Positions 19,331-44,023 of a stretch of 61,733 nucleotides of DNA are shown here, in pieces; position 1 is the first letter of the stretch, and each line of letters begins with the position of its first letter. Below the pieces are notes generated by a model. That model saw only the letters and a program-made list of their open reading frames with translations, had not been told where the DNA came from and ran no database searches. Origin of the DNA: a virus (taxonomy: Duplodnaviria > Heunggongvirae > Uroviricota > Caudoviricetes); the IMG/VR virus record IMGVR_UViG_3300035208_003871; one strand, 5' to 3'. The position numbers and the translations under genes were made by a program.

Positions 19331-19440
19331 ACAATAGGTTGGGTTGACAAGGGTTACTTCATAAATCCTGAAAATTTAAACGAGACTGACCTTTCTAAAC
19401 AATTGGTCTTTAACACCTGAGTCAAATGATCTCCTGTTGT
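19331..19440 (+). ncRNA. Y-RNA-like module U1 with Ser(UGA) anticodon-loop mimic
   Basis: ACAATAGG TTGGGTTGACAA GGG TTACTTC ... CCT GAGTC AAAT GATCT CCTGTTGT; internal TAAAT-CCTGAAA-ATTTA. Confidence 0.8.
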
Positions 19441-19502
19441 AAAATCAAGATCGGAAATTGCAAAGTATTGGCAGGGAGGAACTAGACTCCCAAAAATTCA
19501 AA

Positions 19503-19589
19503 GTGTCTATAGGAAAGTGGCTGAATCCGCTAGGCTAAGAACCTAGTACCGTTAGGGTAAACGCACCAGTTCGAATCTGGTTAGGCACA
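19503..19589 (+). tRNA. tRNA-Leu(AAG)
   Basis: GTGTCTA/TAGGCAC, CTAGG-CT AAG AA-CCTAG, long variable arm, TTCGAAT T-loop. Confidence 0.85.
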
Positions 19590-19591
19590 TC

Positions 19592-19734
19592 CCAAGCAGG
19601 TTGGGTTGTTGAGAGTTACTTCAATTGATTTGAAATCGATAGCCGGGAAAGGAGGGATGAAATTATAATGCCCGGATTTGTGACGAAATGTCATATTCCA
19701 CTCCAAAACTCAAAGCAATTGATCTCCTGTTTGG
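19592..19734 (+). ncRNA. Y-RNA-like module U2 with Ser(UGA) anticodon-loop mimic
   Basis: CCAAGCAGG TTGGGTTGTTGA GAG TTACTTC ... CTC AAAGC AATT GATCT CCTGTTTGG; internal ATTGA-TTTGAAA-TCGAT. Confidence 0.8.
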
Positions 19735-19754
19735 AAAGTTAAGTTCAGTTAAAA

Positions 19755-19910
19755 GTTCAGTTAGTGTAAAGGTATCATATTGGCATAAAAAGAAACTCTA
19801 ATCGACTGATCTCCCAATGTTCTTTGTGATGTTTTTTCATTGGGTTGGGTAGATGTGAGATACTTCATATACAGGGGCCGATGATGGTGGTTCGATTCCA
19901 CCACTGAACA
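19755..19910 (+). ncRNA. tRNA-like scaffold carrying permuted Y-like module U3 in place of the anticodon loop
   Basis: GTTCAGT/ACTGAAC, D arm, TTGGC/GCCGA, GGTGG TTCGATT CCACC; 92 nt insert 19785-19876 has the 3' motif strand before the 5' strand. Confidence 0.8.
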
Positions 19911-19912
19911 TT

Positions 19913-19977
19913 TGATAGGTTGGGTAGTAAAGGGTTACTTCAAGGTTTTAGTCCCGATACAGACTGATCTCCTATCA
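19913..19977 (+). ncRNA. Y-RNA-like module U4 (minimal)
   Basis: TGATAGG TTGGGTAGTAAA GGG TTACTTC ... CCC GATAC AGACT GATCT CCTATCA. Confidence 0.8.
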
Positions 19978-20093
19978 GTAAAGTTTCCCAGTATAGCCAT
20001 AGGAAAATCTCAAAAGGATAGTTAAGACCGATTCAATATAGAGATCATTTGCTTTATGCAAAGTGGAGTAGTAAAATACTCCATTTTCATAAT

Positions 20094-20164
20094 GGTAGTT
20101 TAGCATATTGGATATGTACCTGCCTGCAGAGCAGAGGAAGCAAGTTCGACTCTTGCAACTACCT
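20094..20164 (+). tRNA. tRNA-Cys(GCA)
   Basis: GGTAGTT/AACTACC, loop CT GCA GA, U73. Confidence 0.85.
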
Positions 20165-20165
20165 T

Positions 20166-20238
20166 GTGATTGTAGCGTAATGGTTTAGCGTAACTGACTG
20201 TGACTCAGTTGGATTGGGTTCGATTCCCAACTATCACA
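20166..20238 (+). tRNA. tRNA-His(GTG)
   Basis: ACTGA-CT GTG AC-TCAGT, TTGGG TTCGATT CCCAA. Confidence 0.85.
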
Positions 20239-20370
20239 TTTTATGAAGTTTAAAAGTGGTGTAAAATACAACGTCGATTCCAGAGACTGGAAATATGGAT
20301 TTGCAAAAGATTCAAGAGTAGATCTCCATCCAACTAAAATGATCGCGGATACAGGTCGCTATACTCATAG

Positions 20371-20676
20371 ATGGGAAAGATATACGGACACTATATGGTT
20401 GAAAAAATGACAATTTATGAAAATGTATCAGTTTGGATAGATAAACAGGGATTTATCAAAACTCCTGATGGAAAACTTGGTCAGTACACTTACAACATCG
20501 ATCATCTCAATCCAAAAGATAAAGATATGAAAGGTCTTCAGTTTGTCGCAGATAATAACAAAGCGACAATTTATTTAGTTCGTGAATTCATTGCTATAGA
20601 TGCCGATTACCGAGAAGAGCATCCTCGTAAAGTAGATCCGAAAGATTGGTATCTTCTGGAAATAAAACCTCAGTAA
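20371..20676 (+). CDS. Hypothetical protein
   Basis: 101 aa ORF between tRNAs; start uncertain. Confidence 0.6.
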   Translation: MGKIYGHYMVEKMTIYENVSVWIDKQGFIKTPDGKLGQYTYNIDHLNPKDKDMKGLQFVADNNKATIYLVREFIAIDADYREEHPRKVDPKDWYLLEIKPQ

Positions 20677-20685
20677 AATTTTTGA

Positions 20686-20757
20686 GCTCCAGTAGTGTAA
20701 AGGTAATCATCGGTGATTCTCAGTCATTGAATCTGGGTTCAATTCCCAGCTGGAGTA
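20686..20757 (+). tRNA. tRNA-Glu(CTC)
   Basis: GCTCCAG/CTGGAGT archaeal Glu-like acceptor, loop TT CTC AG. Confidence 0.85.
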
Positions 20758-20770
20758 TTTGTGATACATT

Positions 20771-21229
20771 ATGAAACTTTCAGAAGCATTAATCAAACGA
20801 GCAGATCTTCAGAAAAGATATGCTGAACTAAAGAATCGAATTTTGAATAATGTCCAAGTGCAAGAAGGAGACACACCATCCGAAGATCCCGAAGTGTTAA
20901 TTGAAGAAGCATGTAGTGTGTTGTTTGATCTCAAAATGTATATTCAGATGATTAACAAGACCAATTCACGAACAATTATGAATGATGGATCGACTATCAC
21001 AAATGCAATCGCAATGCGGGATGCTCTTAAGTTAAAGCATGAATTATATTCATCAATCGCAAGTTCAGCAACTATAACTCCACGATTCTCACGATCTGAG
21101 ATCAAAGCAACAAGTGTTATTGATGTAAATAAATATCGAACACTTGCAGATGATACCGCAAAATCCTTCAGATTTTTGGATACCGAAATCCAGACAATGA
21201 ATTGGAATACTGAATTAATCGAAAATTAA
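20771..21229 (+). CDS. DIP1984-like (DUF6847) helical protein
   Basis: MKLSEALIKRADLQKR...VQEGDTPSEDP...IQMINKTN...RDAL...IQTMNWNTEL follows the family pattern as I recall it. Confidence 0.75.
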   Translation: MKLSEALIKRADLQKRYAELKNRILNNVQVQEGDTPSEDPEVLIEEACSVLFDLKMYIQMINKTNSRTIMNDGSTITNAIAMRDALKLKHELYSSIASSATITPRFSRSEIKATSVIDVNKYRTLADDTAKSFRFLDTEIQTMNWNTELIEN

Positions 21230-21241
21230 CCAAAATTAAGT

Positions 21242-21431
21242 ACAAGTTTGGTAGTTTGTAACGTAAAGTGATTGCACACAAATATTACAAATGGATATAT
21301 ATGCGAACGAAGGAACCAAGTAGCAAATTTACAAATCAGTTCCATATTGTTACCTGTGTAAAGTGCATCAATTAATGTTATTACCGGTGCTTTAGTTATG
21401 TTACAAACGAGGGTGGGTAAGGGGAACTTGT
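21242..21431 (+). ncRNA. Structured RNA candidate directly 3' of the DIP1984-like gene
   Basis: Nested stems ACAAGTT/AACTTGT, GTTTGTAACGTAA/TTATGTTACAAAC, TGATTGCAC/GTGCATCA, GGAAC/GTTCC. Confidence 0.55.
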
Positions 21432-21433
21432 TA

Positions 21434-21514
21434 AGGAATGTGCCCAAGCTTGGTAAGGGGATCGGCTCAAACCCGATTGTGCAGACCTCAGGGGTTCAAA
21501 TCCCTTCATTCCTA
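21434..21514 (+). tRNA. tRNA-Leu(CAA)
   Basis: AGGAATG/CATTCCT, ATCGG-CT CAA AC-CCGAT, variable arm. Confidence 0.85.
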
Positions 21515-21676
21515 TAAATTGTGAAAATATGATAAGACGATGCATTGTGCAATATGTGAAGAAATGTCCAATTCATCATGAAAATGATGTTAGTTTAGCA
21601 GATTATTGTGCTGATTGCGGATATAACAAAGGTATAAAATCACATTACATTTATTGTTCTTTTGGAGATGAAATAG

Positions 21677-22000
21677 ATGATGTTTAACCACAATGAAATA
21701 TCAGAATATACACACGATGAGACAATGAAGAAGGTAATTCCTTATATTACTTCCGATGTTACAATTGTGAAATTAGAAGTACTTGATTTTCAGGTTAATA
21801 ATACTGCACATTCTATGTCAAAGTTCGGAATTCCTGTTGGTCAATATTTTTATCAGGAAATGGCAATGCACATAGATAATATAGTGTCCAATACTACAGG
21901 TCATATAATGGCGTACTACGGTGGAGATAGAATTCCATCAATTGAGTTATGGGATTACACAAATGTACCGATATGCACCTTTTATTTTGTGGTGGTTTAA
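21677..22000 (+). CDS. Hypothetical protein
   Basis: GGAG leader; abuts the next gene. Confidence 0.6.
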   Translation: MMFNHNEISEYTHDETMKKVIPYITSDVTIVKLEVLDFQVNNTAHSMSKFGIPVGQYFYQEMAMHIDNIVSNTTGHIMAYYGGDRIPSIELWDYTNVPICTFYFVVV

Positions 22001-22987
22001 ATGGTTAAAGTATTTTATCATAATGATCCGGACGGTTGGTGTTCGGCGTATTGGGTTCGTAAACACCTCGAAAGTGAAAAGATTCCATTTGAGGCATCAG
22101 ATTTCATCGAAATGAACTACGATAAATCTTTCCCATGGGACAAAATTAATCACATGGGTGAACAAGTTTTCATGGTTGACTTCTCACTCAATGATCCTGA
22201 AGATATGATCAAACTTTCTAAAATGTGTGATTTTACATGGATCGATCACCATAAAACTGCCATCGATAAAATGGGTGAATTTTGTAATAAATCAGGATGG
22301 GAAGAACCTAAAGGTATTCGTATTGATGGTGTTGCAGCCTGTGCTTTAACATGGGTTTATTTACATGGAATTTCATCTGGAAAGTTCACATTAAAAGATA
22401 TTACAACTGCGCATCCAATAAGAGGCGATGTTGTTACCAGTGAGTATATTACTGTTGATACTAATGAGATTGTAATTAGAAAATATACATGGGAATTTGC
22501 GCCATTATTCACGCAATACATCCACCTATGGGATACTTGGCAATGGAAAAATCATCCGGATGCAATGGAAATTAATGAGTTTATCACTGCGTTAAATGCA
22601 TCAAATACACACCCATTATCTATAAATTGGGACGCTCTTAATGAAAGTCAGGAAGTAATCTGTACACTTGTGCAGTCGGGATCTGATATGATTCGATTTC
22701 GTGATGGATATGCAAAAGGGTTGTGTGATTCTATAGGTAAAGTTATCGAATTTGAAGGGCATCGATGTTTTGTATGTAACATGGGACACTGTAATAGCGA
22801 GTGGTTTAAATCAGTAGATCCTTCAACCTATGATATCATGATGCCATTTTATTACAATGTACAAACAGAGCAGTTTTGCATCAGTCTCTACAGTGATAAA
22901 GTAGACGTTAGTAAAATAGCGGTTAAATACGGTGGAGGAGGACATTGCGGAGCTTCTGGCTTTCAATGTAGAAACTTACCTTTCTGA
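22001..22987 (+). CDS. DHH/DHHA1 phosphoesterase
   Basis: YHNDPDG, VDFS, WIDHH and GGGGHCGASGF motifs. Confidence 0.9.
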   Translation: MVKVFYHNDPDGWCSAYWVRKHLESEKIPFEASDFIEMNYDKSFPWDKINHMGEQVFMVDFSLNDPEDMIKLSKMCDFTWIDHHKTAIDKMGEFCNKSGWEEPKGIRIDGVAACALTWVYLHGISSGKFTLKDITTAHPIRGDVVTSEYITVDTNEIVIRKYTWEFAPLFTQYIHLWDTWQWKNHPDAMEINEFITALNASNTHPLSINWDALNESQEVICTLVQSGSDMIRFRDGYAKGLCDSIGKVIEFEGHRCFVCNMGHCNSEWFKSVDPSTYDIMMPFYYNVQTEQFCISLYSDKVDVSKIAVKYGGGGHCGASGFQCRNLPF

Positions 22988-23219
22988 AATAGAAATATTT
23001 TTACGGTAATTTAATAATGACACGTATAAATGTATGTCCGGAATGCAAAACTGAAGTTAAGGAACCATTTTATGTAAATGTTATACAAGATAAGCGTTTA
23101 CCTAATGATTTTCATTATTTTTATCAATGTCCGAAGTGTAAGCGAGTCTTTGTAGAAGTAAATTAGAATGTAAACCCCAAATTATTTATAATTTGGAAAA
23201 CAACAGTTAATGCACATTT

Positions 23220-23339
23220 GCCAGTTTAGCAGAGTAGGAATGCATCCGGCCTGTATTTCAGATGTTCACAAAAAGTGAACAGATAGTAAAAAGTGAACAG
23301 GATACCGGAAGATCGGGGGAGCATAACCCTCAACTGGCT
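23220..23339 (+). tRNA. tRNA-Thr(TGT) with canonical 37/38 BHB intron (23256-23303), C33
   Basis: TCCGG/CCGGA stem; BHB central helix CCTG/CAGG, 3 nt bulges, TTCA/TGAA intron helix; U73. Confidence 0.85.
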
Positions 23340-23340
23340 C

Positions 23341-23412
23341 TCTGCCTTGGTCTAGCAGCAAGGATGATTGACTTTCTATCAATCTGCGTGGGTGCAATTC
23401 CCGCAGGCAGAA
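23341..23412 (+). tRNA. tRNA-Glu(TTC)
   Basis: TCTGCCT/AGGCAGA, ATTGA-CT TTC TA-TCAAT, T-loop TGCAATT. Confidence 0.8.
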
Positions 23413-23435
23413 TAAACGATATTAAACGATAACTA

Positions 23436-23449
23436 TTTTAAGCCGAAGT
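23436..23449 (+). promoter_or_regulatory. TTTTAAGCCGAAGT promoter motif
   Basis: 28 nt upstream of ATG 23464. Confidence 0.55.
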
Positions 23450-23463
23450 GCGTATATAATTAT

Positions 23464-23664
23464 ATGTCACGACTTGATGCACGTATGCAGATTTTTGCTG
23501 ATAGATTAACTGATTCACTTGGTTTAAAGAAAGGAACTCTTATTAAAGATGAAGATATCCAAAAGATTGCAACTGCAACCATGGGTCAGCAGATAACGAT
23601 TAATAACAAAACGATTGCCATTGCACCGGTTATGATTTTTCAGGCAAACAAAATCATGGAATGA
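23464..23664 (+). CDS. Hypothetical protein
   Basis: Follows the promoter motif. Confidence 0.6.
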   Translation: MSRLDARMQIFADRLTDSLGLKKGTLIKDEDIQKIATATMGQQITINNKTIAIAPVMIFQANKIME

Positions 23665-23749
23665 AATAAAGAACATAAATTTACTAAGTAAATTTAATTA
23701 TACACTTTAAAATAATTTATATATTTATAAAATGAATGTATAAGTTAAC

Positions 23750-24067
23750 ATGTTTCAGTACATTAGATTATTTTTATTCTTACAGTTTCTTGATTTAGTT
23801 ACCACATATGCTGATATCACATATGTTATCGGCACATCTGAAGGAAATACATTATGGTCATATTTACTATCGTATATGCCAATTAATATGTACATTATGA
23901 TGATTATAGGTAAATTTGTAGGAATAGTTATGCTATTAACATGCCTTTATATACTAACTATAATCTCAACAAATAAGATTTACAAAACCCTGAATACAGT
24001 AATATTAGCAATGTGTACATTCGTAGTAATTAATAATATAGCCATATTACTCACATATTTCCAATAA
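23750..24067 (+). CDS. Three-TM membrane protein (DUF5658-like)
   Basis: LQFLDLVTT...EGN...K motif with hydrophobic helices. Confidence 0.6.
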   Translation: MFQYIRLFLFLQFLDLVTTYADITYVIGTSEGNTLWSYLLSYMPINMYIMMIIGKFVGIVMLLTCLYILTIISTNKIYKTLNTVILAMCTFVVINNIAILLTYFQ

Positions 24068-24098
24068 TTTTATATTTAATAACGATTCAACTATTATG

Positions 24099-24172
24099 GG
24101 GCGTTTAGCATAGCTGGTTAATGCACTCGGCTCATACCCGAGAGATCATCGGTTCGAACCCGGTATCGCCCA
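24099..24172 (+). tRNA. tRNA with CAT anticodon (Ile2-like or elongator Met)
   Basis: GGGCG acceptor start, CTCGG-CT CAT AC-CCGAG; body resembles archaeal Ile2. Confidence 0.8.
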
Positions 24173-24173
24173 T

Positions 24174-24262
24174 TCGCCTGTAGCCTATAGGACTAAGGCA
24201 CCTGACTTCTAAGTTTATACGAAGATATCAGGATGAGGCGGGTTCAATTCCCGTCAGGCGAG
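24174..24262 (+). tRNA. tRNA-Arg(TCT) with 15 nt BHB intron (24212-24226)
   Basis: CCTGA/TCAGG stem; central helix CTTC/GAAG with 3 nt bulges. Confidence 0.88.
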
Positions 24263-24264
24263 TA

Positions 24265-24633
24265 ATGCAACAGAAAATTACCGGCAATGTATTAATTGTT
24301 GCTGGACCTCGTAACTTTTTTAATCGCGAAATAATTATTGAGAATTTAATCAATGCAATCTGTGACATTAAACCCACCAAGATTATTACCGGAAATGCAA
24401 CCGGTGTAGATCAAATTACTGCCGAATATTGCCATAGTTTAACCGAAATAGAATTTGAAGTGTTTCCTGCAGATTGGGATAAATATGGTAGATCAGCAGG
24501 CCCTCGTAGAAACTGGACTATGGCACTTGCAGGAACTCACCTACTAGCCTTTACAAATGGATCACCCGGAACAAGTAATATGATTTATTTTGCAAAACGT
24601 CATGATTTGGAAATTATCTTTGTAGATATATAA
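24265..24633 (+). CDS. SLOG-superfamily protein (DUF2493/YspA-like)
   Basis: IVAGPRNF, ITGNATGVD, FPADWDKYGRSAGPRRN, AFTNGSPGTSNMI. Confidence 0.85.
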   Translation: MQQKITGNVLIVAGPRNFFNREIIIENLINAICDIKPTKIITGNATGVDQITAEYCHSLTEIEFEVFPADWDKYGRSAGPRRNWTMALAGTHLLAFTNGSPGTSNMIYFAKRHDLEIIFVDI

Positions 24634-24722
24634 AATAAATTTATATACTTTGCCCGAAAATCTCCATGAAAATTAACTTTTTTAATAATTAACAAATAAT
24701 AGTTAACAAACCTATTATATAG

Positions 24723-24736
24723 TTTTAAGCCGAAGT
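24723..24736 (+). promoter_or_regulatory. TTTTAAGCCGAAGT promoter motif
   Basis: 21 nt before ATG 24744; heads the ligase operon. Confidence 0.55.
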
Positions 24737-24743
24737 ATAATGA

Positions 24744-24902
24744 ATGGGAAGAACGTGGCCAGAAGAAGATAAGAAAACATTAAGTGATCTCTACTTAATA
24801 GATCGGCTATTTGCACCTGAAATTGCATTACGAATGGGTCGCGGTGTCGGAGCAGTTCGTATGAAAATTACAGCAATGAATTTGTCCGGAGGTGGATTAT
24901 GA
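24744..24902 (+). CDS. Small HTH/Myb-like protein (below the ORF track cutoff)
   Basis: MGRTWPEEDKKTL...EIALRMGRGVGAVRMK; stop overlaps the ligase start. Confidence 0.6.
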   Translation: MGRTWPEEDKKTLSDLYLIDRLFAPEIALRMGRGVGAVRMKITAMNLSGGGL

Positions 24903-26772: not shown

Positions 26773-26816
26773 AATTATTAGACAACCTTTAAATTTTTGT
26801 AAATCTAATTAAATTT

Positions 26817-26890
26817 ACCCGTATAGTGTATCGGATTAATCATTAGGGATCGCGAATCCCTAGAGCGGGGTTCAACTCCCCGTACGGGTG
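26817..26890 (+). tRNA. tRNA-Arg(GCG), C33
   Basis: ACCCGTA/TACGGGT, AGGGA-TC GCG AA-TCCCT, CGGGG TTCAACT CCCCG. Confidence 0.8.
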
Positions 26891-27171
26891 TCTTTTATGA
26901 TTAGGAAATTGTATTTTCTTTTATTTGGTAGGAATCGGCATCGATGGGTGAAATACTATTACAGATATAAAGACCCAATTCGGAATGGATGGGAGTTGTG
27001 TGAATTATGAATGTTAAACGGCGCGCGTGCTGGCATCTTATTGGTTATTGGTGTGCTCGTTGCAATCGAAAAATCGGGTGCAAGTATTTTAGTGGAACAC
27101 ATCCAAGTCCTAATAAATTCCACACTTGGTAAATAATAAATAATAAATGATAAACAAATACATTTATCTAT

Positions 27172-27185: not shown

Positions 27186-27190
27186 ATAAT

Positions 27191-28841: not shown

Positions 28842-28954
28842 ACTGAAAGGTTGGGTTGATAAGGGTTACTTCGGTATTTATGGTTCGAATCCATGACTCT
28901 CTGATCAGGGAGTATAAAAGACAAAACACCTGAGTCGAAAGATCTCCTTTCGGT
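28842..28954 (+). ncRNA. Y-RNA-like module U5 with YrlA-type T arm and loop-closed acceptor stem
   Basis: Motif strands as in U1; inside TATGG TTCGAAT CCATG then ACTCTCT-GATC-AGGGAGT (7 bp). Confidence 0.82.
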
Positions 28955-31348: not shown

Positions 31349-31429
31349 AAACCCTAAATAATTACCATATAATCACTATCAAATAAGTAAATATTTAAGT
31401 ATAAACAAACAATATTGTAGTAGCGAACT

Positions 31430-31502
31430 GGAAGCGTCGTATAACGGTTTATTATCCTGCCCCGTCACGGCAGGGATTCGGGTTCGACTCCCGGCGTTTC
31501 CG
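31430..31502 (+). tRNA. tRNA-Asp(GTC), C33
   Basis: CTGCC-CC GTC AC-GGCAG, G73. Confidence 0.85.
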
Positions 31503-31556
31503 TCTGTCTATAGGGATCGCGATTAAAACAACAGTTCACCTATAGACAATTAAATT

Positions 31557-31642
31557 GCCGTCATATTCAAGTGGTATGGAACTGGTCCTGAAAACCAGCG
31601 CTCTGAAACAGTGGGTCGAAGGTTCAAATCCTTCTGGCGGCG
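31557..31642 (+). tRNA. tRNA-Ser(TGA), C33
   Basis: CTGGT-CC TGA AA-ACCAG, long variable arm, G73. Confidence 0.85.
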
Positions 31643-31648
31643 CTTTCT

Positions 31649-32030: not shown

Positions 32031-32102
32031 GCGTTGGTAGTTCAATGGTAGAATGTCTGCCCTCCAAGCAGAATGTTGGGAGTTCGATCCTCCCTCAGCG
32101 CA
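32031..32102 (+). tRNA. tRNA-Gly(TCC), C33
   Basis: GCG start, TCTGC-CC TCC AA-GCAGA. Confidence 0.85.
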
Positions 32103-32163
32103 CTCTCATTTCAATGAACTGCTGAAGGTCGATGCATCCAGTAGAGAAATGAGGAAATCAAGA

Positions 32164-32239
32164 AGCGAGATAGGCTAGCTAGGATCAGGCCGCCGGACCC
32201 ATGATCCGGTATTCTCCAGTTCGAATCTGGATCTCGCTA
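32164..32239 (+). tRNA. Initiator-like tRNA-Met(CAT), C33
   Basis: AGCGAGA/TCTCGCT (A1-U72), CCGGA-CC CAT GA-TCCGG; only two of the three initiator G-C pairs. Confidence 0.75.
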
Positions 32240-33716: not shown

Positions 33717-33733
33717 ATTTAAATGAATAAACT

Positions 33734-33805
33734 GGAATCATAATGTAGTGGATTGCATAGTTGGCCCTTAACCAACTTGTGAGGGTTCGAGTCCCTCTGG
33801 TTCCG
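33734..33805 (+). tRNA. tRNA-Lys(CTT), C33
   Basis: GTTGG-CC CTT AA-CCAAC. Confidence 0.82.
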
Positions 33806-33808
33806 TCA

Positions 33809-35747: not shown

Positions 35748-35763
35748 TTCACGGTGATATAAT

Positions 35764-36069: not shown

Positions 36070-36195
36070 TGTTAAGCCGAAATAATTAACAAATGAAACA
36101 TTTATAATCAGGCACATACATAGTTGTAATTCACAAAAACACAAACAAAAACTTTAATCAACAAATTTGATTCCTGTGACGGTGGTGATGATAGG

Positions 36196-37428: not shown

Positions 37429-37436
37429 TTTTTTCG

Positions 37437-37661
37437 GTGATGATCATGTCAGAAACAATCAATGAATCAGTTCCTGAAGTATTTACACCTGTAGAAAGTG
37501 TACCAATTGAAAATGTTGTACCACGAGAAGATCCGGTTGTTGTTCCATCAATGACTAAGGAGCAGATTGAGCAGATGCATCAAATCAAGGAAGGATTAAC
37601 AATTGTTATCCTTGTATCTTCATTTGCATTAATCATCACTAAGGTTGCGGGTGTTTGGTAA
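37437..37661 (+). CDS. Small protein with C-terminal TM helix
   Basis: GLTIVILVSSFALIITKVAGVW. Confidence 0.55.
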   Translation: MMIMSETINESVPEVFTPVESVPIENVVPREDPVVVPSMTKEQIEQMHQIKEGLTIVILVSSFALIITKVAGVW

Positions 37662-37960
37662 TGGTAGATAACCAGAAATTCTGTATTACCTGTGCTCATT
37701 ACGTCAGAAAATCTCCATTAGGAAAGTCAAGCTCTGGAGATTGCACACTCGATCCAGCATGGGCAATGGTAAAACTTCCGGTAACACACTGGTGCAGTCA
37801 TTGGATATCTGGCATTCAGCGTTTCTCCAATGAAATTTACAAATCTCCAGATGCAACTGATATACCAGCAGTTATAGTTAAACCGGATACCACAATCCAA
37901 ACCGAGCTCAACACAATAATTGATACAGCAAGCAGCAAAAAATCACCAAAGGTGCGGTAA
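37655..37960 (+). CDS. Small Cys/His metal-binding protein
   Basis: CITCAHY...C...HWCSHW. Confidence 0.6.
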   Translation: MVMVDNQKFCITCAHYVRKSPLGKSSSGDCTLDPAWAMVKLPVTHWCSHWISGIQRFSNEIYKSPDATDIPAVIVKPDTTIQTELNTIIDTASSKKSPKVR

Positions 37961-38793
37961 TGAGTGGCGGTTGGAAGGAAGAAGCAGAAGGTTTGGAAAA
38001 GAAAAAGAAACCCTCTATTTCTAAAACAGATATAATGAATAAGTTTAAACCAGCTACTGAAATTACATCAGTATCATCACTTAAACTTGCATTATATGGA
38101 TTACCAAAAACTGGTAAAACTCATCTTGCCATTACTGCACGCAAACCTGTGTACATCATTGATACTGAAAAATCAAGCAATCTTCTATTACAGATGTTAT
38201 CAGAAGAAGATCGCAAAGACATTCATGTCCTTGATGTTATGGAATATACAGACAAGCGTGATGGAAAGAGTAACCTGAACCTCACAATGTCTCTTGAACT
38301 AATCGAAGATGCAATAGAAGCGCTTCACGACATTGCATTAGTATCACCAGTTAAGGGAACCATTGTATTAGATAGTGCATCCGATCTATGGGATTTTCTG
38401 AAATCATGGCTTAATGAAGATGTTGACGATAAAAAAGTCACCAAAGACGGGCGCATGATGCAGGTAGAATGGTCAAAACCAAATGCTCGCTATACCGAGA
38501 CAATGAGATTACTTATCAAAGCCGGTTGGAATGTCATCTTAACATTCAGAGCAGAAGAAGTCTTTGGATCAAAGGGAGAGCGCCTTGGAGTTTATAAACC
38601 AAAGGGTCAGAAAGATACACTCTTCTGGGTAGATCAAATCGTGGAAATGCAACAAATCGGCAATAATCACATATTAAGATTCCATGGTGGAAGATTTGGA
38701 GATCTCCAAGGATCAGAACTCACAAATCCTGCGTGGAAAGATTTAATCGACTTTTTATCATTGAAATCCGGTGTGAAGTTCGCAGAGAACTAA
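37960..38793 (+). CDS. AAA_24/RecA-like phage recombination ATPase
   Basis: LYGLPKTGKT, IIDTE, IVLDSASD. Confidence 0.8.
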   Translation: MSGGWKEEAEGLEKKKKPSISKTDIMNKFKPATEITSVSSLKLALYGLPKTGKTHLAITARKPVYIIDTEKSSNLLLQMLSEEDRKDIHVLDVMEYTDKRDGKSNLNLTMSLELIEDAIEALHDIALVSPVKGTIVLDSASDLWDFLKSWLNEDVDDKKVTKDGRMMQVEWSKPNARYTETMRLLIKAGWNVILTFRAEEVFGSKGERLGVYKPKGQKDTLFWVDQIVEMQQIGNNHILRFHGGRFGDLQGSELTNPAWKDLIDFLSLKSGVKFAEN

Positions 38794-38819
38794 CACCATT
38801 CTTATTTTTAGGCAACATA

Positions 38820-39611
38820 ATGGATAAAATAAATGAATTAAATGATGAAATACTATATAAAGTAGAAATAGATTGGGATTCTTGTGGCGATTACACCTCA
38901 AAGAGTCGGATTTCCACGTACACCTTTTGCCCGCTCCAATATAAAAAAAAATATGTTGATGGTATAAGAGATACTAGCTTCAATTATGCCATGACTGTAG
39001 GAAGTCGGTTTCACGAATTCGCTGATAACTTTTTTGATTTTGCACCCATTTATCCGAAAGACAAATGGGAAGATTTTATTCATTCGGACTTCAATGATAA
39101 TGAGCGTATTTCTTTATCGTGGTTTATTAATCAGGAGAGAGAACGCCTCGAACTGTTTGATGGAGATATGGATCTCTGGATGCCTATAGTTCGTGAATGT
39201 AAGATTGTAGATCCATTACATAAACTAAGGGGAATCGTTGATCGGGTGGACAAAATCAATGATTTATACATAATCGTTGAATATAAAACATCAAAGAGTA
39301 TTTACAAACCAAGCTTGCAGCGCGAATTTGGATTTTATAAGATACTATTACAAGCTGATCCACGATTTAAAGGTAAGAAATTCCTCGGATGTGTAATTAA
39401 CCCGCGATTAAAACAAATAGAATTTATGAATCCATCACGCGAGTCAACCGTGGAAAAAATGATATTTAACCTACGAGAATCAGTTGCTAATGGCATCTAT
39501 ATTCCAACATGCTCCGGTGCTAAATTTGCCATGTGTGGCCTATGCACTTCCTGTGAGGAAGCTAACTTATATCAAGAGTATAAAAACCTTGGTAATATGC
39601 ATGGCATATAA
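38820..39611 (+). CDS. Cas4/AddB-like PD-(D/E)xK exonuclease with Fe-S Cys
   Basis: FCPLQY, GSRFHE, RGIVDRVD, IVEYKTS, C-terminal C...C..C...C. Confidence 0.85.
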   Translation: MDKINELNDEILYKVEIDWDSCGDYTSKSRISTYTFCPLQYKKKYVDGIRDTSFNYAMTVGSRFHEFADNFFDFAPIYPKDKWEDFIHSDFNDNERISLSWFINQERERLELFDGDMDLWMPIVRECKIVDPLHKLRGIVDRVDKINDLYIIVEYKTSKSIYKPSLQREFGFYKILLQADPRFKGKKFLGCVINPRLKQIEFMNPSRESTVEKMIFNLRESVANGIYIPTCSGAKFAMCGLCTSCEEANLYQEYKNLGNMHGI

Positions 39612-39656
39612 TTATTAAGCATAAGAAATAATTCATATAGAGGGCACACAAACAGA

Positions 39657-40013
39657 ATGACTAACATATCATTGGGAAAACCCGATACGTTATCTCAACC
39701 AGTTGATATAACAAATCGTACTGAAAATTCAGAAAAATCTAAAAAATTTACCATGCTTTTTAATAAAATATCAGGCATCCTAAATTCAAAAGATTTGCAG
39801 TACCGGGAAGACCCAATTTTTGTATTGTCCACTATCGATCTACTCACTCAGATTAAGATCAAGGCGGTTAGAGCAGAACTTACCATATATCCAGATAAAG
39901 CAGAAAAGTTAGAGGATGAATTATTGGATATAATAGTCTACAGTATGTTAACGCTTGATAAAATCTACACTGAACGTAAAGAGATCCCTGAACTTAAGAG
40001 GAACACCGCATGA
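39657..40013 (+). CDS. DUF1599/MazG-like nucleotide-modification-associated helical domain
   Basis: KDLQY...KAVR...EDELLDIIVYS pattern. Confidence 0.55.
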   Translation: MTNISLGKPDTLSQPVDITNRTENSEKSKKFTMLFNKISGILNSKDLQYREDPIFVLSTIDLLTQIKIKAVRAELTIYPDKAEKLEDELLDIIVYSMLTLDKIYTERKEIPELKRNTA

Positions 40014-40300
40014 CTGAAGACCCTATTACAATTAATTTTACATTTGATGAGCTTGCCGGACTATATTTCATTGCAAATGCAGGACTTATATCTGTTATCA
40101 TGAATACTATGACAGAGAAAGTCGAACTCAAAAATCCTGATGAAGATGCAATTCGCTACCGGGAGACTGAAGTTGGTTACCGCGAAAATATTCTGGCATT
40201 CAGAGAAAATGAAAATACAGAATCCGTTCTCGTGAAATTAGATAACATTCGCGAGTGTTTAGCTAAAGCATCTGAAGAATCCAAAAATAAACCACAATAA
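40010..40300 (+). CDS. Hypothetical protein
   Basis: Overlaps the previous stop. Confidence 0.6.
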   Translation: MTEDPITINFTFDELAGLYFIANAGLISVIMNTMTEKVELKNPDEDAIRYRETEVGYRENILAFRENENTESVLVKLDNIRECLAKASEESKNKPQ

Positions 40301-40437
40301 ATTTTAACATAAATTTTAACAATACACCAATCCAACTCAATCCAACCAATAATATAACTATTCTTACCACATCATTTGTTAATTAAAAATAATTAACATT
40401 CACAACCTTTTTCACCTGATGCATCAAATAGTATCCA

Positions 40438-42843
40438 ATGAACAACCCTTCTTCAAATAACTCAGATAACAAAGAAATAGACAAAAATCAGATTTGGATC
40501 TTAGAAGAAGCTTCATATCGTGTAAAACAGGGTCAACCAATCGTGCTTCTTTTCTCTCGTAATTACTGCAACAATAAAGAAACGGTTACTCATGAAATTC
40601 ATGGATTTAGACCATATTTTTATGCACCAATAAACGAAAAACCTGATTTACCTGCCGGTTGCGAATATTCAGAAGAAATTACAAAAGATGCTCTTGGCCG
40701 TGATGTTCGTAAAGTATACACTGATATTCCATCAACAGTACGAAAAGTGCGTGAACAATACAGTTTCACATGCATGGCAGATTATTTATTTGAAAAACGG
40801 TGGATGGCAGATAACAAAGTCTTTTACGCTTATCAATGGGTAAATAATCAAGCTATTCCAGTCGAAATAGAAGATGTAGTAAAACCACGCATCCTCTATG
40901 TAGACATAGAAGTATTATCGCCACAAGGTATATTTCCCGAACCTATAGAATCAAAATTTCCCGTAGTAAGCATTCAGATGCTCGATAGTTACACTAACGA
41001 CATAACTGTATTAACTGCTGGAAATCTCTACGTAGATGGAAAAAAATACAATATACCCCAAACTGATGCTGAAGATCACATCGCATGTAAATCAGAAGAA
41101 GAACTATTCAAAGTATTCCAAGAATACATAAAAATAACAGATCCGGATCTCATCACAATGTGGAACGGGGATAAGTACGATTTACCATACTTAATTAGGC
41201 GGGCCAGCAACCTCAAAATAAGCATCAGTGGATTGGGTAGATTGGGTAGACCAATGGCAATATACGAACCCGGTGATGATAAATTCAATCTTCGTATTCC
41301 CGGACGATCCACTCTCGATATGATGTCTGCATTCAAAGTTTTCTATAAAAAGAAAGCGCAGCGCGAAAGTTACGATTTAAAAACAGTTTCGGCAGATTAT
41401 GGATTCCCATATGCTGATTACGGTTACAAATTGGCAGAAGTTCTCGGTAACAAAGATTATGTAACCTTTCTTCAATACTGCCGTAATGATGTTATAGCAC
41501 TGAAAAACATCGATGATAAAGTTGGATTATTTAACTTTTATGAAACCCTACGCAAAATCGCCGGTTGTAAACTTGATAACACACTCCACAATTCCGTAAT
41601 CATCGAATCCCTGTTAGTAAAATATGATATATTACCAATGCCTACTAAAAATCGAAATCTCGCACCAGTAAACTTCGAGGGAGCACTTGTATTAACACCA
41701 CCTTGTGGTATATTTGAAAATGTCGGCACCGTAGATCTTGCAGCTCTATATCCAACCGTAATGCGTGCATTTCCGGGAAGATGTTGTCCTGATGCTTACA
41801 TGAAAGTTGTAGAAGTTCTCGAACTTGTAGTGGATGAACGTGAACGATATCGGGCAATAAATAAAACGGATGAATCGACAGATCTCACAGAACTTATAGA
41901 ATACATTTACAAAGTTTTAGCAAACAGTTTTTACGGAGCACTTGGTCTTCAATCTTTCAGATTATTCAAAGAATCATGCGCATCATCAGTGTGTGAAATC
42001 GGGCGTGATGTTGATCGATTTGTTCATTCAAAATTGCGTTCGTATGGTAAGTCTGTTTTGTATTCTGACACTGATTCGAGTTTCTTTTCTCAATTAGAGA
42101 CCGTAGAAGAGGGATTGGATATACAAGAAAAGTTGAATAAAGATCTCATTGAATGGGGAGAACAAAAAGGTGCTCGTGTACATTTTTCATTAAAATTCGA
42201 AAAACTCTATGATCGTATATTATTCAAAAAAGACACCGATTATAAAAAGAAGTATTCTTGGGACGACGATGTAGGTAAGAAAAAGAAATACATTGGTAAA
42301 CTAAAGTGGAAAGAAGGTAAGGATGCAGAATACCTGCGAGATCATGGTGAAGAACTCAATTTTATGGGATTAGAGCTTGTCCGATCAGATAACTCGAAAT
42401 TTACTAAACAAATCCTTCGTGAATTCTTCAACATTGTATTAATGGATGGTGATATCGATAAAGCATCGCAGTACATACGTGACTCTTATCAAAAAGCAAA
42501 AACCGGTCAAGTAGATTACCGTGACATTTCTATCCCCAAAGATGTTCGCAAAGTATCAAAAACCGACAATCCATGGAAACGAGGAATAGAAAACACCAAA
42601 AATACATTCAATTACATTATCCCAGACGGAACAAAACCACGTCTTATATTCGTAAAAGATTATCCTTATGAATTCTGCATAGACGATGAAATAGACATTG
42701 GAGAATGGAAAGAAAAAATAGATTGGGATACCATGCTTGATAAAACCGTCACTAAAAAACTTAAAACATATGCTGAATCTGCAGGTATATCATGGGATCG
42801 ATTTGTTCATGGTCAACAAACCATTGATCAATGGTTCAAATAA
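40438..42843 (+). CDS. polB: Family B DNA polymerase with 3'-5' exonuclease
   Basis: VDIEV, WNGDKYD, DLAALYP, KVLANSFYG, YSDTDS, GLELVRSD. Confidence 0.95.
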   Translation: MNNPSSNNSDNKEIDKNQIWILEEASYRVKQGQPIVLLFSRNYCNNKETVTHEIHGFRPYFYAPINEKPDLPAGCEYSEEITKDALGRDVRKVYTDIPSTVRKVREQYSFTCMADYLFEKRWMADNKVFYAYQWVNNQAIPVEIEDVVKPRILYVDIEVLSPQGIFPEPIESKFPVVSIQMLDSYTNDITVLTAGNLYVDGKKYNIPQTDAEDHIACKSEEELFKVFQEYIKITDPDLITMWNGDKYDLPYLIRRASNLKISISGLGRLGRPMAIYEPGDDKFNLRIPGRSTLDMMSAFKVFYKKKAQRESYDLKTVSADYGFPYADYGYKLAEVLGNKDYVTFLQYCRNDVIALKNIDDKVGLFNFYETLRKIAGCKLDNTLHNSVIIESLLVKYDILPMPTKNRNLAPVNFEGALVLTPPCGIFENVGTVDLAALYPTVMRAFPGRCCPDAYMKVVEVLELVVDERERYRAINKTDESTDLTELIEYIYKVLANSFYGALGLQSFRLFKESCASSVCEIGRDVDRFVHSKLRSYGKSVLYSDTDSSFFSQLETVEEGLDIQEKLNKDLIEWGEQKGARVHFSLKFEKLYDRILFKKDTDYKKKYSWDDDVGKKKKYIGKLKWKEGKDAEYLRDHGEELNFMGLELVRSDNSKFTKQILREFFNIVLMDGDIDKASQYIRDSYQKAKTGQVDYRDISIPKDVRKVSKTDNPWKRGIENTKNTFNYIIPDGTKPRLIFVKDYPYEFCIDDEIDIGEWKEKIDWDTMLDKTVTKKLKTYAESAGISWDRFVHGQQTIDQWFK

Positions 42844-42949
42844 AAAAGGGGCGTTCACTTCGTTCACTAAACCCATTAAACCCCTAATAAAATAAATATA
42901 AATTTTTATATCATACATTAAACAAATCTTGATATACAATAAACATCTA

Positions 42950-43027
42950 TACTTAACGTACCCCACAGTAACAAGACTCGCAAGAACAGGAAACCTATTT
43001 CTTCCTGTTTTTTGTTTTGTTCAGACT
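42950..43027 (+). ncRNA. Hairpin small-RNA unit, copy 3 of 5
   Basis: TACTTAA, 13 nt, AACAAGAC/GTTTTGTT, AAGAACAGGAA/TTCCTGTTTTT, GTTCAGACT overlapping the stop of the convergent gene. Confidence 0.6.
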
Positions 43028-43842
43028 GATTTGTCGGTGATGCGCAGTTTGGTATAATATTGATGGTAGTCGGGTGTGCGATCTGGGATTTCGGCCAAAC
43101 TTCTCCCGCGAACAATTAAGTCATCTCTGATTTTGCAAAGCATCTCATATCTAATTTGTATACCAAATTTGAGTCGTATAAATCCGTCATTTTGCTCTTC
43201 GAGTTTTTCTAATAAATCTAACTGAGATTGCGATGCTGTATCACGCTGATTGCACCCTGCTTCTTTTGCAGTTTTTCCAAATATAACTACATTTAACATA
43301 TCCGCTTCTGTAGCATATACCAGCCATTTCATTTCGTCCGGAACATCATATAACAAATGGTCTTTAATCGCGTCAGTCATACCCTTATACTTTAACTTAG
43401 TTGCCTCGCGCCGCGCCCACCATTGCGGAACTTTATAATAATCTAAATGTTTTCCAAATGTCTTGATAACATATCTTTGAAAATCTGAAACTTTTTCACC
43501 CACGGTTGGATCTTCCATGCGAGATGGTGTTATCTTCATTAAGTACATCGTCATACCATCACGAGTTAAACACTTTAGTTTAACTTTACCACTCTTTGAA
43601 GTGGTTGACGTAACGTATACCACTGTAGAAAACTCACTAAATTCATTTTTGCCTCTTGAAAGGATTTTAGATTGGGTATCTTTATTAATTCCAAGTGCTT
43701 TTGAGATATCTGCTACCGGGATAACCCATCCCATATCAGCGGTGCATATGAACCGCACTGGTATATTAAAGACTTCTCCTTCAATCATAAGTGGATCACC
43801 CGTTCTCAATGAGTGATCTTCTGCTCGTGTTATATCGAACAT
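43021..43842 (-). CDS. BRO/Rha-type antirepressor-like DNA-binding protein
   Basis: VADISKALGI N-domain; TDAIKD...EADMLNVVIFG...NQRD C-domain shared with 45784..46503. Confidence 0.7.
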   Translation of the reverse strand: MFDITRAEDHSLRTGDPLMIEGEVFNIPVRFICTADMGWVIPVADISKALGINKDTQSKILSRGKNEFSEFSTVVYVTSTTSKSGKVKLKCLTRDGMTMYLMKITPSRMEDPTVGEKVSDFQRYVIKTFGKHLDYYKVPQWWARREATKLKYKGMTDAIKDHLLYDVPDEMKWLVYATEADMLNVVIFGKTAKEAGCNQRDTASQSQLDLLEKLEEQNDGFIRLKFGIQIRYEMLCKIRDDLIVRGRSLAEIPDRTPDYHQYYTKLRITDKSV

Positions 43843-43911
43843 ATATACATGTAGTTTTATTAGAATAAATGTTCACTTATAGTCCATTACTTAAAATTTA
43901 CAAATGCGAAA

Positions 43912-43920
43912 CTTTTAAAT
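43912..43920 (+). promoter_or_regulatory. TATA-like box upstream of the Y-like RNA/tRNA/Ro60 locus
   Basis: TTTTAAATA about 30 nt before U6. Confidence 0.5.
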
Positions 43921-43941
43921 ACTTGCGCGTTGACCTATTGT

Positions 43942-44023
43942 ATGTCAAAACAGGTTGGGCAGCAAAGGGATACTTCAATGAAAATGAAACAAAGCCCGAT
44001 GCGACTTGATCTCCTGTAGACAT
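43942..44023 (+). ncRNA. Y-RNA-like module U6 with Phe(GAA)-like 7 nt loop
   Basis: ACAGG TTGGGCAGCAAA GGG ATACTTC ... CCC GATGC GACTT GATCT CCTGT; TTCA-ATGAAAA-TGAA. Confidence 0.82.

Follow-up and report, generated by a model that had tools for sequence, protein, structure and literature searches.

What are the small hairpins that follow a conserved UACUUC motif in several RNA genes of a virus that also encodes a Ro60 protein, and do they imitate the anticodon arms of tRNAs? The question is raised by a window (the whole 61,733-nt stretch analysed here, IMG/VR record IMGVR_UViG_3300035208_003871) carrying a Ro60/Rsr orthologue and the RNA units U1 to U7 (Table 1). Units U6 and U7 span 59–276 nt upstream of the Ro60 gene on the + strand, with U7 ending 59 nt from it; U1–U5 lie 15–25 kb upstream, on the + strand like Ro60, and have a module in common with U6 and U7. 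The sequence-only reading had placed hairpins directly after UACUUC in U1, U2, U6 and U7, and all four were located there.

Table 1. Ro60 gene, RNA units, their hairpins and a canonical tRNA used for comparison in the window
Feature	Position	Strand	Description
U1, short Y-like unit	19332..19439	+	starts 15 nt after tRNA-Leu(UAG)
U1 hairpin	UACUUC 19355-19360; stem 19362-19366 / 19374-19378; loop 19367-19373		5-bp stem; 7-nt loop CCUGAAA
U2, Y-like unit	19592..19735	+	starts 3 nt after tRNA-Leu(AAG); fold z = -2.4
U2 hairpin	19624-19640; stem 19624-19628 / 19636-19640; loop 19629-19635		loop UUUGAAA
U3, tRNA-ended unit	19755..19910	+	acceptor, D and T arms; no anticodon arm
U4, minimal Y-like unit	19913..19977	+	three basal stems; no apical hairpin
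U5, Y-like unit	28842..28954	+	abuts tRNA-Phe; no anticodon arm
tRNA-Ser(UGA), canonical viral	31557..31643	+	C33 loop CCUGAAA; comparison point for U1
U6, short Y-like unit	43950..44017	+	upstream of Ro60
U6 hairpin	43974-43988; stem 43974-43977 / 43985-43988; loop 43978-43984		loop AUGAAAA
U7, complete tRNA-Thr(UGU)-shaped RNA	44031..44167	+	63-nt Ro-helix module inserted
U7 module	44060-44122		between tRNA positions 28 and 29
U7 anticodon arm	44058-44059 + 44123-44137		CGA / UCG around UUUGUAA at 44123-44135
Ro60/Rsr orthologue	44226..45752	+	508 aa; Pfam TROVE 8e-25, vWA_Ro60 2.4e-12

YrlA is the Y RNA with tRNA-like features that accompanies Ro60/Rsr in bacteria and phages (Chen et al. 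2014, PMC4201824; Wang et al. 2018, bioRxiv 10.1101/312249), and the designation of our units as Y-like was borne out by the adjoining Ro60 gene, a Ro-helix motif like GNCGAA(N)G and YrlA's YUAY signature. The helix motif and UACUUC are common to 21 seed units, 19 of which have UUAC or AUAC followed by UUC, the remaining two having CUAC (which is YUAY) and GUAC. The published GNCGAA(N)G is matched exactly in some units only; at its place stands a conserved variant, UGSGWWG (within GGUUGSGU), flanked by stems that covary. Homologues of the window's Ro60 numbered 421, and 88 matches from a profile search adjoin Ro60 genes. On these sequence grounds the units of the window are Y RNAs of the YrlA/YrlB class, with a predicted Ro60 partnership. 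Units U3 and U7 have T and D arms together with an acceptor-like stem, whereas U5 has the T arm and closed stem only; U1, U2, U4 and U6 are without tRNA-like T and D arms and acceptor stem and are YrlB-like. In U3, the Ro helix is closed by a loop, its 3′ strand coming first, and the T arm lies 20 nt after UACUU; U5 has the YrlA layout, with a T-arm-like hairpin and a 7-bp closed stem. The units had no match to any Rfam Y RNA family at thresholds up to E = 10, INPHARED phages yielded no DNA-level relative of the Ro60 region by BLASTn, and a single-protein locus search of IMG/VR gave no match; the related IMG/VR loci used below were obtained by an alignment-based search. The 30 IMG/VR loci from a scan for the exact helix-UACUUC pattern were discarded as chance matches, all lacking the 3′ strand. 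ARAGORN calls none of the Y RNA genes.

On balance, the hairpins appear to be the anticodon-arm element of Y RNAs of the YrlA/YrlB class that are built on a tRNA scaffold and partner the virus's Ro60. A conserved three-stem helix would bear the Ro60-binding motif and end in YUAY-UUC. In the long units, this helix would be inserted into the 5′ strand of the tRNA anticodon stem, usually at the 28/29 junction, and therefore the C of UUC would represent tRNA position 29 and the hairpin that follows positions 29–41. The 2–5 nt after the D arm would then pair with the nucleotides after the hairpin and complete a 5-bp stem, yielding a whole cloverleaf with an extra Ro60 handle. Such molecules would exist in a tRNA-ended form (U7; the related loci L031–L035, L038–L040 and L048; and the cultured haloarchaeal virus HGTV-1) and in a circularly permuted form with the acceptor stem closed as in classical YrlA (L049, L062, L092, L096 and L101), while the short units U1, U2 and U6 would keep just the helix, with a small apical element in the corresponding position.

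The pairing across the insertion speaks for this reading. With registers picked by us for maximal pairing, a perfect 5-bp anticodon stem spans the inserted Ro60-binding helix in 18/20 tRNA-bodied units, among them U7, three syntenic relatives and HGTV-1. In the 20 parsed units, 43 of 45 cross-junction pairs form, versus 9–26 of 45 after a 1–3 nt shift of the 5′ side, and these pairs covary, with eleven different combinations at 27:43 and 28:42. Loop composition, which does not depend on the choice of register, conforms to a tRNA signature (Y32 in 17/20, U33 in 18/20, R37 in 19/20 and A38 in 16/20), the exceptions including A33 in two loops and C37 in one. The T arm lies 18–20 nt after UACUU in most tRNA-bodied units. 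ARAGORN identified the molecules joined in silico as tRNAs with a consistent anticodon; it is too permissive at the junction to test the cross-junction pairs and was used for anticodon consistency only. For the tRNA-bodied units, the claim of anticodon stem-loop mimics in the sequence-only reading stands and was understated: the hairpin makes up positions 29–41 of a full anticodon arm, the top pairs of which form across the Ro60 helix.

A perfect cloverleaf is also what remains when the module is removed in silico, which raises the question of whether U7 and its kin are true decoding tRNAs, with the module either an intron for an archaeal splicing endonuclease or an arm tolerated in translation; in the permuted genes, it would represent leader plus trailer. 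Among the 28 tRNAs of the window there is none for Pro or for Thr, the identity of U7 (UGU); an archaeal host is probable, HGTV-1 encodes RtcB and one of its units was deposited as a tRNA with an intron. (Other IMG/VR viral records have 1–4 tRNA-model matches each, too few to judge anticodon gap-filling.) However, no bulge-helix-bulge is present, as the putative intron end UUAC-UU cannot pair with U7 exon positions 23–26 and is constant beside different exons. The module also occurs as a stand-alone Y RNA without a tRNA body (U1, U2, U4 and U6), HGTV-1 already has canonical tRNA-Gln(CUG) and tRNA-Tyr(GUA), the same layout is found in Sericytochromatia, which are bacteria, and loops with A33, C37 or an A34 anticodon occur. 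We therefore consider a decoding role very improbable.

Returning to the hairpins as anticodon-arm elements of Y RNAs, we tabulated loops across homologues, as the sequence-only reading had proposed, using 81 non-redundant units (the window, six metagenomic relatives and 66 IMG/VR Ro60 loci) and a fixed-geometry test in which a hairpin has at least 3 bp and starts 0–3 nt after UACUU. Among these 81 units, which are related to one another and not independent samples, 7-nt loops were observed 37 times versus 15 expected (p = 2e-8), while loop sizes of 4–6 and 8–10 nt were at the null level. Loops of 7 nt in which position 2 is U and position 6 is R were found in 20 of the same 81 units, versus 2.3 expected (p = 8e-14). 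The pattern is kept in homologues. Hairpins of the U33/R37 type with 7-nt loops are present in 17/32 T-arm units (1.1 expected) and in 7/49 of those lacking a T arm (1.7 expected, p = 0.0016).

The short units are less straightforward. The loop of U1, with C rather than U at position 33, exactly matches the C33 loop of the tRNA-Ser(UGA) that the virus encodes, as had been claimed; however, once UGAAA is given, just two more loop positions have to match. It is possible, though we would not call it probable, that the likeness of U1, U2 and U6 to Ser and Phe loops is a by-product of a conserved UGAAA/GAAA element, which would bind a protein or pair with the conserved motif's UUC(A), and not selected mimicry. 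GAAA, UGAAA and GAAAC are enriched 4–5 fold within 25 nt after UACUUC, and UGAAA occurs at differing loop registers in U1, U2, U6, the L031–L033 orthologues and the HGTV-1 short unit. Both U1 and U2 can form a competing UUCA/UGAA hairpin, likewise with a 7-nt loop, and the 5′ strand of the U6 hairpin is the UUCA of the conserved motif itself; the orthologues of U6 in L031–L035 keep UGAAA(A) and not the hairpin. RNAalifold applied to eight short units retained three basal stems only, with no conserved apical hairpin. Against a mere by-product, the enrichment of U33/R37 hairpins extends to units without a T arm, several of which have full 5-bp/7-nt arms from UUC (e.g. L031, L037, L073 and L097), and the hairpin of the short units sits exactly where the long units have their true anticodon arm. 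The specific Ser and Phe assignments proposed for U1, U2 and U6 are thus not secure, given that the shared UGAAA shifts register and the apical hairpin is not conserved.

Relatives of the window show the anticodon arm in a variety of settings. Orthologous units lie directly upstream of Ro60 in the four syntenic relatives L031 and L033–L035 and in L032, a short contig in which a B-family DNA polymerase is again found upstream of Ro60; this arrangement of units near Ro60 on its strand recurs in HGTV-1. The L031–L035 orthologues present Asn, Ile, Asn, Gln-like and Cys loops on one architecture, and L034 and L035 are ~90 % identical yet differ in their loops. HGTV-1 has two tRNA-bodied units, with Gln CUG and Tyr GUA loops, together with a Ro60 gene and a short unit with an AUUGAAA loop; its canonical tRNAs include Gln(CUG) and Tyr(GUA), and both mimic anticodons are thus duplicated. 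A unit of this virus is deposited as ‘tRNA-Asp + intron’. We rejected the Gln mimic as a copy of the canonical tRNA-Gln(CUG), to which it is 64 % identical, other tRNAs being closer.

In cellular genomes, the arm is present in two Sericytochromatia MAGs (bacteria), with the insert at 31/32, while six units (five haloarchaeal and one from a cyanobacterial MAG) have an 11–15 nt linker instead. The profile recovered 11 short units only from 56 cellular Ro60 loci, and a scan of cellular Ro60 loci for UACUU plus a T arm added nine more distinct units; with so few matches the profile is evidently too family-specific, and these counts give no firm frequency of the arm in cellular genomes. As U3, U4 and U5 and the six cellular units lack it, the anticodon arm is optional for the family.

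What would an anticodon arm on a Y RNA be for? Ro60 would hold the helix and offer the tRNA-shaped remainder, with its canonical anticodon loop, to a tRNA-reading protein. Retention of the arm, with covarying pairs and a Y32-U33...R37-A38 signature, makes it probable that this partner reads the anticodon arm; candidates would be a synthetase, a modifying or repairing enzyme, or an anticodon nuclease. The last of these was the choice of the sequence-only reading, in which Ro60-bound baits would soak up such nucleases or bring in repair enzymes. As examined here, the mimics would titrate the host enzymes that cut anticodon loops or act on them as competitive inhibitors, or repair enzymes would be drawn to cleaved loops, and viral translation would be protected. 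The idea is not new, YrlA's tRNA-like domain having been suggested, as speculation, to be a possible competitive inhibitor of an anticodon nuclease (Hughes et al. 2020, PMC7790460), and this proposal itself counts in its favour. The arm is maintained with tRNA-like loop geometry, and anticodon identity turns over fast in close relatives (L034 versus L035) while the Ro module stays constant. As the HGTV-1 mimics duplicate canonical viral tRNAs, they would be unneeded for decoding, which we counted for a decoy. Phage tRNAs have been proposed to escape nucleases by loop changes (PMC10264068), and C33 in 6/28 canonical tRNAs of the window fits such an escape; U2, with U33, has the C33 tRNA-Ser(UGA) as its counterpart. 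Genes for RtcB, RNA ligase or CCA-adding enzymes are found near Ro60 in HGTV-1, L032 and L036.

All of this support is circumstantial, however, and several observations point the other way. No RtcB or RNA-ligase homologue was found within the window by tblastn. Unit U1 copies the C33 loop, the presumed evader, rather than a bait loop. A very wide spread of anticodons is seen (Thr, Asn, Ile, Cys, Gln, Gly, Ser, Leu, Phe, Ala, Tyr and UCA), bacterial MAG loci have the arm too, and the nucleases named in the sequence-only reading are the classical bacterial ones, whereas the host of this virus is probably archaeal. We therefore regard a decoy function as unlikely, and it is similarly doubtful that archaeal and bacterial viruses deploy Ro60 particles with tRNA look-alikes, their loops tuned per virus to host defences that cleave or modify tRNAs. 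Were it true, it would represent a Ro60-based counter-defence with the Y RNA as pseudo-substrate, and give Ro60 and Y RNA a concrete molecular job.

The preferred reading, anticodon-arm elements on tRNA-scaffold Y RNAs, has consequences of its own. Since 2014 it has been an open question what partners the tRNA-like domain of Y RNAs in bacteria and viruses. This question is now narrowed: the canonical anticodon arm that many of these RNAs keep in addition to the tRNA elbow points to anticodon-arm-reading proteins. The published ‘competitive inhibitor’ idea becomes directly testable, with HGTV-1 on Halogranum as a cultivable test system. An origin by insertion of a Ro60-binding helix into the anticodon stem of a tRNA, with linear and permuted forms, would differ from the dimeric-tRNA model. 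Annotation is also affected, as such genes are missed by ARAGORN or mislabelled, as in the HGTV-1 ‘tRNA-Asp + intron’ entry.

Several known systems resemble these RNAs in part. Archaeal intron-containing and permuted tRNA genes likewise have an interrupted anticodon stem and occur in linear and permuted orders, and the host here is probably archaeal; however, no bulge-helix-bulge can be drawn here, the ends of the insert stay the same and show no covariation with the exons, and the insert is a conserved Ro60-type helix also found in free-standing Y RNAs. Phage tRNAs that counter tRNA-cleaving defences (PMC10264068, PMC11464382, PMC11555353) are reminiscent of our units as tRNA-shaped viral RNAs, and the window has a large tRNA set with six C33 tRNAs, but those phage RNAs are ordinary tRNAs taking the place of cleaved host tRNAs, and none is described as a Ro60-bound bait.

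Further likenesses are found among the Y RNAs. For Deinococcus radiodurans Yrn1, a ‘potential anticodon arm’ with a 5-bp stem was modelled (Chen et al. 2014, PMC4201824); however, the Yrn1 loop is of 6 nt, its T and D elements are oriented differently and no anticodon-loop mimic was claimed. The short units U1, U2, U4 and U6 match YrlB and the short Y RNAs of Salmonella Typhimurium and Mycobacterium smegmatis in having the Ro60 helix and a small apical region, and adjoin longer tRNA-like units as in those two species, whereas their apical region often has a small hairpin with UGAAA where the anticodon arm would be, a feature not described for YrlB. There is also a resemblance to YrlA itself, which lies beside Ro60 on the same strand, including in phages, and has a GNCGAA(N)G-like helix followed by YUAY, T and D arms, an acceptor-like stem and, between YUAY and the T arm, a ‘V’ stem-loop in the position of the hairpins studied here; that of M. 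smegmatis is cleaved by RNase P and has CCA added (Chen et al. 2014, PMC4201824; Wang et al. 2018, bioRxiv 10.1101/312249). The units described here differ in their UGSGWWG helix variant and in the open tRNA ends of many of them, the acceptor of YrlA being loop-closed. Published YrlA, of which that of S. Typhimurium has been solved, is stated to have no anticodon loop, its helix being taken as a substitute for the anticodon stem, whereas most of our tRNA-bodied units form a complete 5-bp/7-nt anticodon arm across the helix insertion, and the tRNA-bodied units with this arm hence appear to be a new variant of the YrlA theme.

The window belongs to a large tailed-virus genome that also encodes a B-family DNA polymerase, a RuvB-like protein and NrdD, and one of its ORFs is a Ro60/Rsr orthologue (TROVE 8e-25, vWA_Ro60 2e-12) whose closest cultured relative by protein is that of the haloarchaeal virus HGTV-1 (32% identity). 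Its 28 tRNA genes lie at 19.2-34 kb, all on the + strand, with no tRNA-Thr or tRNA-Pro among them. Six of these canonical tRNAs (Arg GCG, Asp, Ser UGA, Gly, one Met and Lys CUU) carry C33 in place of the near-universal U33. A further tRNA, 91 nt in length with an extended variable arm and the anticodon CUA, is labelled Pyl by ARAGORN and would read the amber codon; since the standard code leaves the Ro60 and DNA polymerase frames uninterrupted, any amber recoding would be partial.

The seven Y-like RNA units of the window (U1-U7) share a 5′ strand of the type GGUUGGGU - 7 nt - GGUUACUUC and a matching 3′ strand that ends in GAUCUCC, and the flanks of each unit pair with one another. RNAalifold retained three stacked stems in eight short units from six viruses, with both-sided changes in 6 of the 12 pairs. 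No Rfam family matched U1-U7. The label 'Y-like RNA' is borne out, since the 5′ motif resembles GNCGAA(N)G of bacterial YrlA and UUAC/AUAC corresponds to the conserved YUAY that 'begins the V loop' in YrlA (Chen 2014, PMC4201824). U1, U2 and U5 start 15, 3 and 1 nt after the 3′ ends of the preceding tRNAs (19317/19332, 19589/19592 and 28841/28842), which suggests that one transcript carries tRNA and unit and that 3′ maturation of the tRNA creates the 5′ end of the unit. U3 has two copies of its 7-nt 5′ acceptor strand, 12 nt apart, and a D arm follows only the second copy.

Coordinates of the Y-like RNA units and of further features in the window and in related loci
Feature	Sequence	Coordinates	Strand	Remark
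U1	window	19332-19439
U2	window	19592-19735
U3	window	19755-19910
U4	window	19913-19977
U5	window	28842-28954
U6	window	43950-44017
U7	window	44031-44167
U3 acceptor strand copies	window	19743-19749, 19755-19761
Ro60/Rsr ORF	window	44226-45752
Six C33 tRNAs	window	26816-26892, 31429-31504, 31557-31643, 32031-32103, 32164-32239, 33733-33807	+
CUA tRNA	window	24173-24263
RNA ligase/RtcB genes near Ro60	L032	4430-5290
RNA ligase/RtcB genes near Ro60	L036	9318-10004, 16912-18093
RNA ligase/RtcB genes near Ro60	L105 (HGTV-1)	4226-5680
Unit deposited as 'tRNA-Asp(gtc) + intron'	L105 (HGTV-1)	2941-3071 = KC292026.1 70440-70571	-	tRNA-bodied Y RNA
Third HGTV-1 unit	L105 (HGTV-1)	about 8260-8370 = KC292026.1 about 75760-75870	-	unannotated
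UCA unit	L048	2713-2834
Middle unit	L034	9688-9800
Middle unit	L035	9689-9800
Permuted YrlA-type RNAs	L108, L148	each about 4520-4720

The four hairpins that the sequence-only reading had described after the conserved TACTTC (U1, U2, U6 and U7) were all found where it had placed them, and the U1 loop, CCUGAAA, is indeed identical to that of the virus's own C33 tRNA-Ser(UGA). The observation is real and generalises beyond the window. A blastn search against cultured phages returned no DNA-level relatives and an exact-pattern scan of IMG/VR gave chance matches only; homologues were reached via the Ro60 protein (six metagenomic contigs, L031-L036; 66 IMG/VR loci; HGTV-1; and 56 cellular-genome loci). 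Four of the six contigs are syntenic, with the DNA polymerase upstream of Ro60 and flanking genes in common; in L036, a different phage, the genes are ordered otherwise. A 5′-strand profile gave 88 matches, or 81 once a duplicate contig was removed. A hairpin with a 7-nt loop starts 0-3 nt after UACUU in 37/81 units (15 expected, p = 2e-8), and 7-nt loops with U at position 2 and a purine at position 6 occur in 20/81 (2.3 expected, p = 8e-14), in 17 of the 32 units with a T arm (1.1 expected) and in 7 of the 49 without (1.7 expected, p = 0.0016); the 81 units are mutually related, so these p values overstate independence. Loop sizes of 4-6 and 8-10 after UACUU showed no excess over the null level in the 81 units. 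Loop sizes and sequences at this position are not random, and the enrichment of anticodon-like loops proposed as a check on the earlier reading is present across homologues.

In most T-arm units the T arm lies 18-20 nt downstream of UACUU, a spacing that equals half an anticodon stem, a 7-nt loop, the 3′ strand and a variable loop of 4-5 nt. We parsed 20 such units (from the window, L031-L035, L038-L040, L043, L048, L049, L062, L072, L092, L096, L101 and HGTV-1), in which the stretch beyond the D arm and position 26 base-pairs with the one beyond the hairpin, giving a perfect 5-bp anticodon stem in 18/20. Across the junction 43/45 pairs form, against 9-26/45 after a shift of the 5′ side by 1-3 nt, and these pairs covary (C-G/A-U, G-C/U-A, C-G/G-C, U-A/U-A, C-G/C-G and others). 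The loops have Y32 (17/20), U33 (18/20), R37 (19/20) and A38 (16/20). On the basis of the stems, the cross-junction pairing, the covariation and the loop composition, the Ro60-type helix interrupts a tRNA anticodon stem on its 5′ strand; the usual insertion point is 28/29, the others being 27/28 and 31/32. The claim of anticodon mimicry holds, in that a canonical anticodon arm is conserved in many units.

Gene order with tRNA ends and the helix closed by a loop is found in U7, U3, L031-L035, L038-L040, L048 and the first HGTV-1 unit, and the classical YrlA permutation, with a closed acceptor stem often encoding N-CCA, in L049, L062, L092, L096, L101, L072 and L043. ARAGORN called none of the T-arm unit genes in place; on the joined sequences it called tRNAs with a stable anticodon. 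The anticodons of the units are Thr UGU (three times), Asn GUU and AUU, Ile GAU, Cys GCA, Gln UUG and CUG, Gly UCC, Ser GCU, Leu UAG/CAG/AAG, Phe GAA, Ala CGC, Tyr GUA and UCA. The UCA loop belongs to a tRNA-ended unit of L048 and would match UGA, a stop codon. Immediately upstream of Ro60, the unit reads Thr in the window, Asn in L031, Ile in L032, Asn in L033, Gln-like in L034 and Cys in L035; the L034 and L035 units are ~90% identical outside these different loops, which argues for fast turnover of loop identity on a conserved module. The arm is optional, being absent from U3-U5 and six cellular-genome units (five haloarchaeal, one from a cyanobacterial MAG). The middle unit of L034 and L035 has a D-arm-like hairpin (4 bp, loop AAUGGUA) directly after UACUUC, with another hairpin and a T arm further on. 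In this unit the Ro helix appears to take the place of the acceptor stem instead of interrupting the anticodon stem, a layout that would make a third topology.

The HGTV-1 unit deposited as an intron-containing tRNA-Asp has an arm that reads Gln CUG, with the Ro-helix insert at 28/29, and the deposited anticodon call looks wrong. A third unit in this virus, overlapping an annotated hypothetical CDS on the opposite strand, comprises UACUUC, ~11 nt, a 5-bp/7-nt arm with a Tyr GUA loop and a T arm. Two Sericytochromatia MAG loci (L108, L148) encode permuted YrlA-type RNAs just downstream of Ro60, with a full anticodon arm and the Ro helix between stem and loop (31/32). These relatives bear on whether U7 and its kin are instead tRNAs from which the module is spliced as an intron, for which the sole favourable point is that U7 is Thr in a window without tRNA-Thr. 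HGTV-1 has canonical tRNA-Gln(CUG) and tRNA-Tyr(GUA) alongside its two mimics, the same architecture occurs in the two bacterial loci, and the same module makes free-standing Y RNAs. Moreover, a bulge-helix-bulge for a 28/29 intron requires pairing between exon positions 23-26 and intron positions -6 to -3; U7 has AGCG and UUAC there, which are unable to pair, and UUAC-UU is constant ahead of quite different exons. We therefore regard splicing as highly improbable.

Ro60 probably binds the helix and displays the tRNA-like remainder to some protein able to recognise anticodon arms. The sequence-only reading had gone further, proposing Ro60-bound mimics as putative baits for anticodon nucleases, which we consider unlikely. 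Circumstantial points in its favour are the fast turnover of loop identity, the redundancy of the HGTV-1 mimics with its canonical tRNAs, the six C33 tRNAs, in keeping with the escape of phage tRNAs from nucleases through altered loops (PMC10264068), and the presence of genes for RtcB, RNA ligase and CCA addition in the vicinity of Ro60 in HGTV-1, L032 and L036. An RNA ligase (PF09414) directly adjoins Ro60 in two relatives, and RtcB lies <=5-7 kb from it in L036 and HGTV-1; among the other genes of L036 are one for a CCA-adding-type enzyme and one that is anti-Pycsar Apyc1-like. In Salmonella, tRNA halves switch on the rsr-yrlBA-rtcBA operon (Hughes 2020, PMC7790460), and the authors suggested that YrlA may competitively inhibit an anticodon nuclease. 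However, tblastn found no RtcB or RNA-ligase homologue in the window, U1 copies a C33 loop and the arm is not confined to viruses.

For the short units U1, U2 and U6 the hairpins are present, but their specific 'Ser' and 'Phe' readings are insecure, because the register of UGAAA shifts, competing hairpins exist and the alignment of short units showed no conserved apical hairpin. UGAAA is common to all three and recurs at differing loop registers in the short-unit orthologues of L031-L033 and in the short unit of HGTV-1, whose AUUGAAA loop closes a 4-bp stem; GAAA and UGAAA are 4-5 fold enriched in the 25 nt after UACUUC. UGAA can pair with UUCA of the conserved motif, and U1 and U2 each have a competing UUCA/UGAA hairpin, likewise with a 7-nt loop. 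Given UGAAA, the identity of the U1 and tRNA-Ser loops needs just two further matches. Several short units elsewhere have full 5-bp/7-nt arms starting at UUC, indicating that miniature anticodon arms do occur in this class.

At the position of the hairpin, published YrlA has a 'less-conserved V stem-loop' (Chen 2014, PMC4201824), and YrlA is stated to lack 'the anticodon loop' (Wang 2018, bioRxiv 10.1101/312249), whereas many of the units described here have a complete anticodon arm. The literature searched described no Y RNA with such an arm; the feature is a variant of YrlA-type Y RNAs in which the complete anticodon arm is new.
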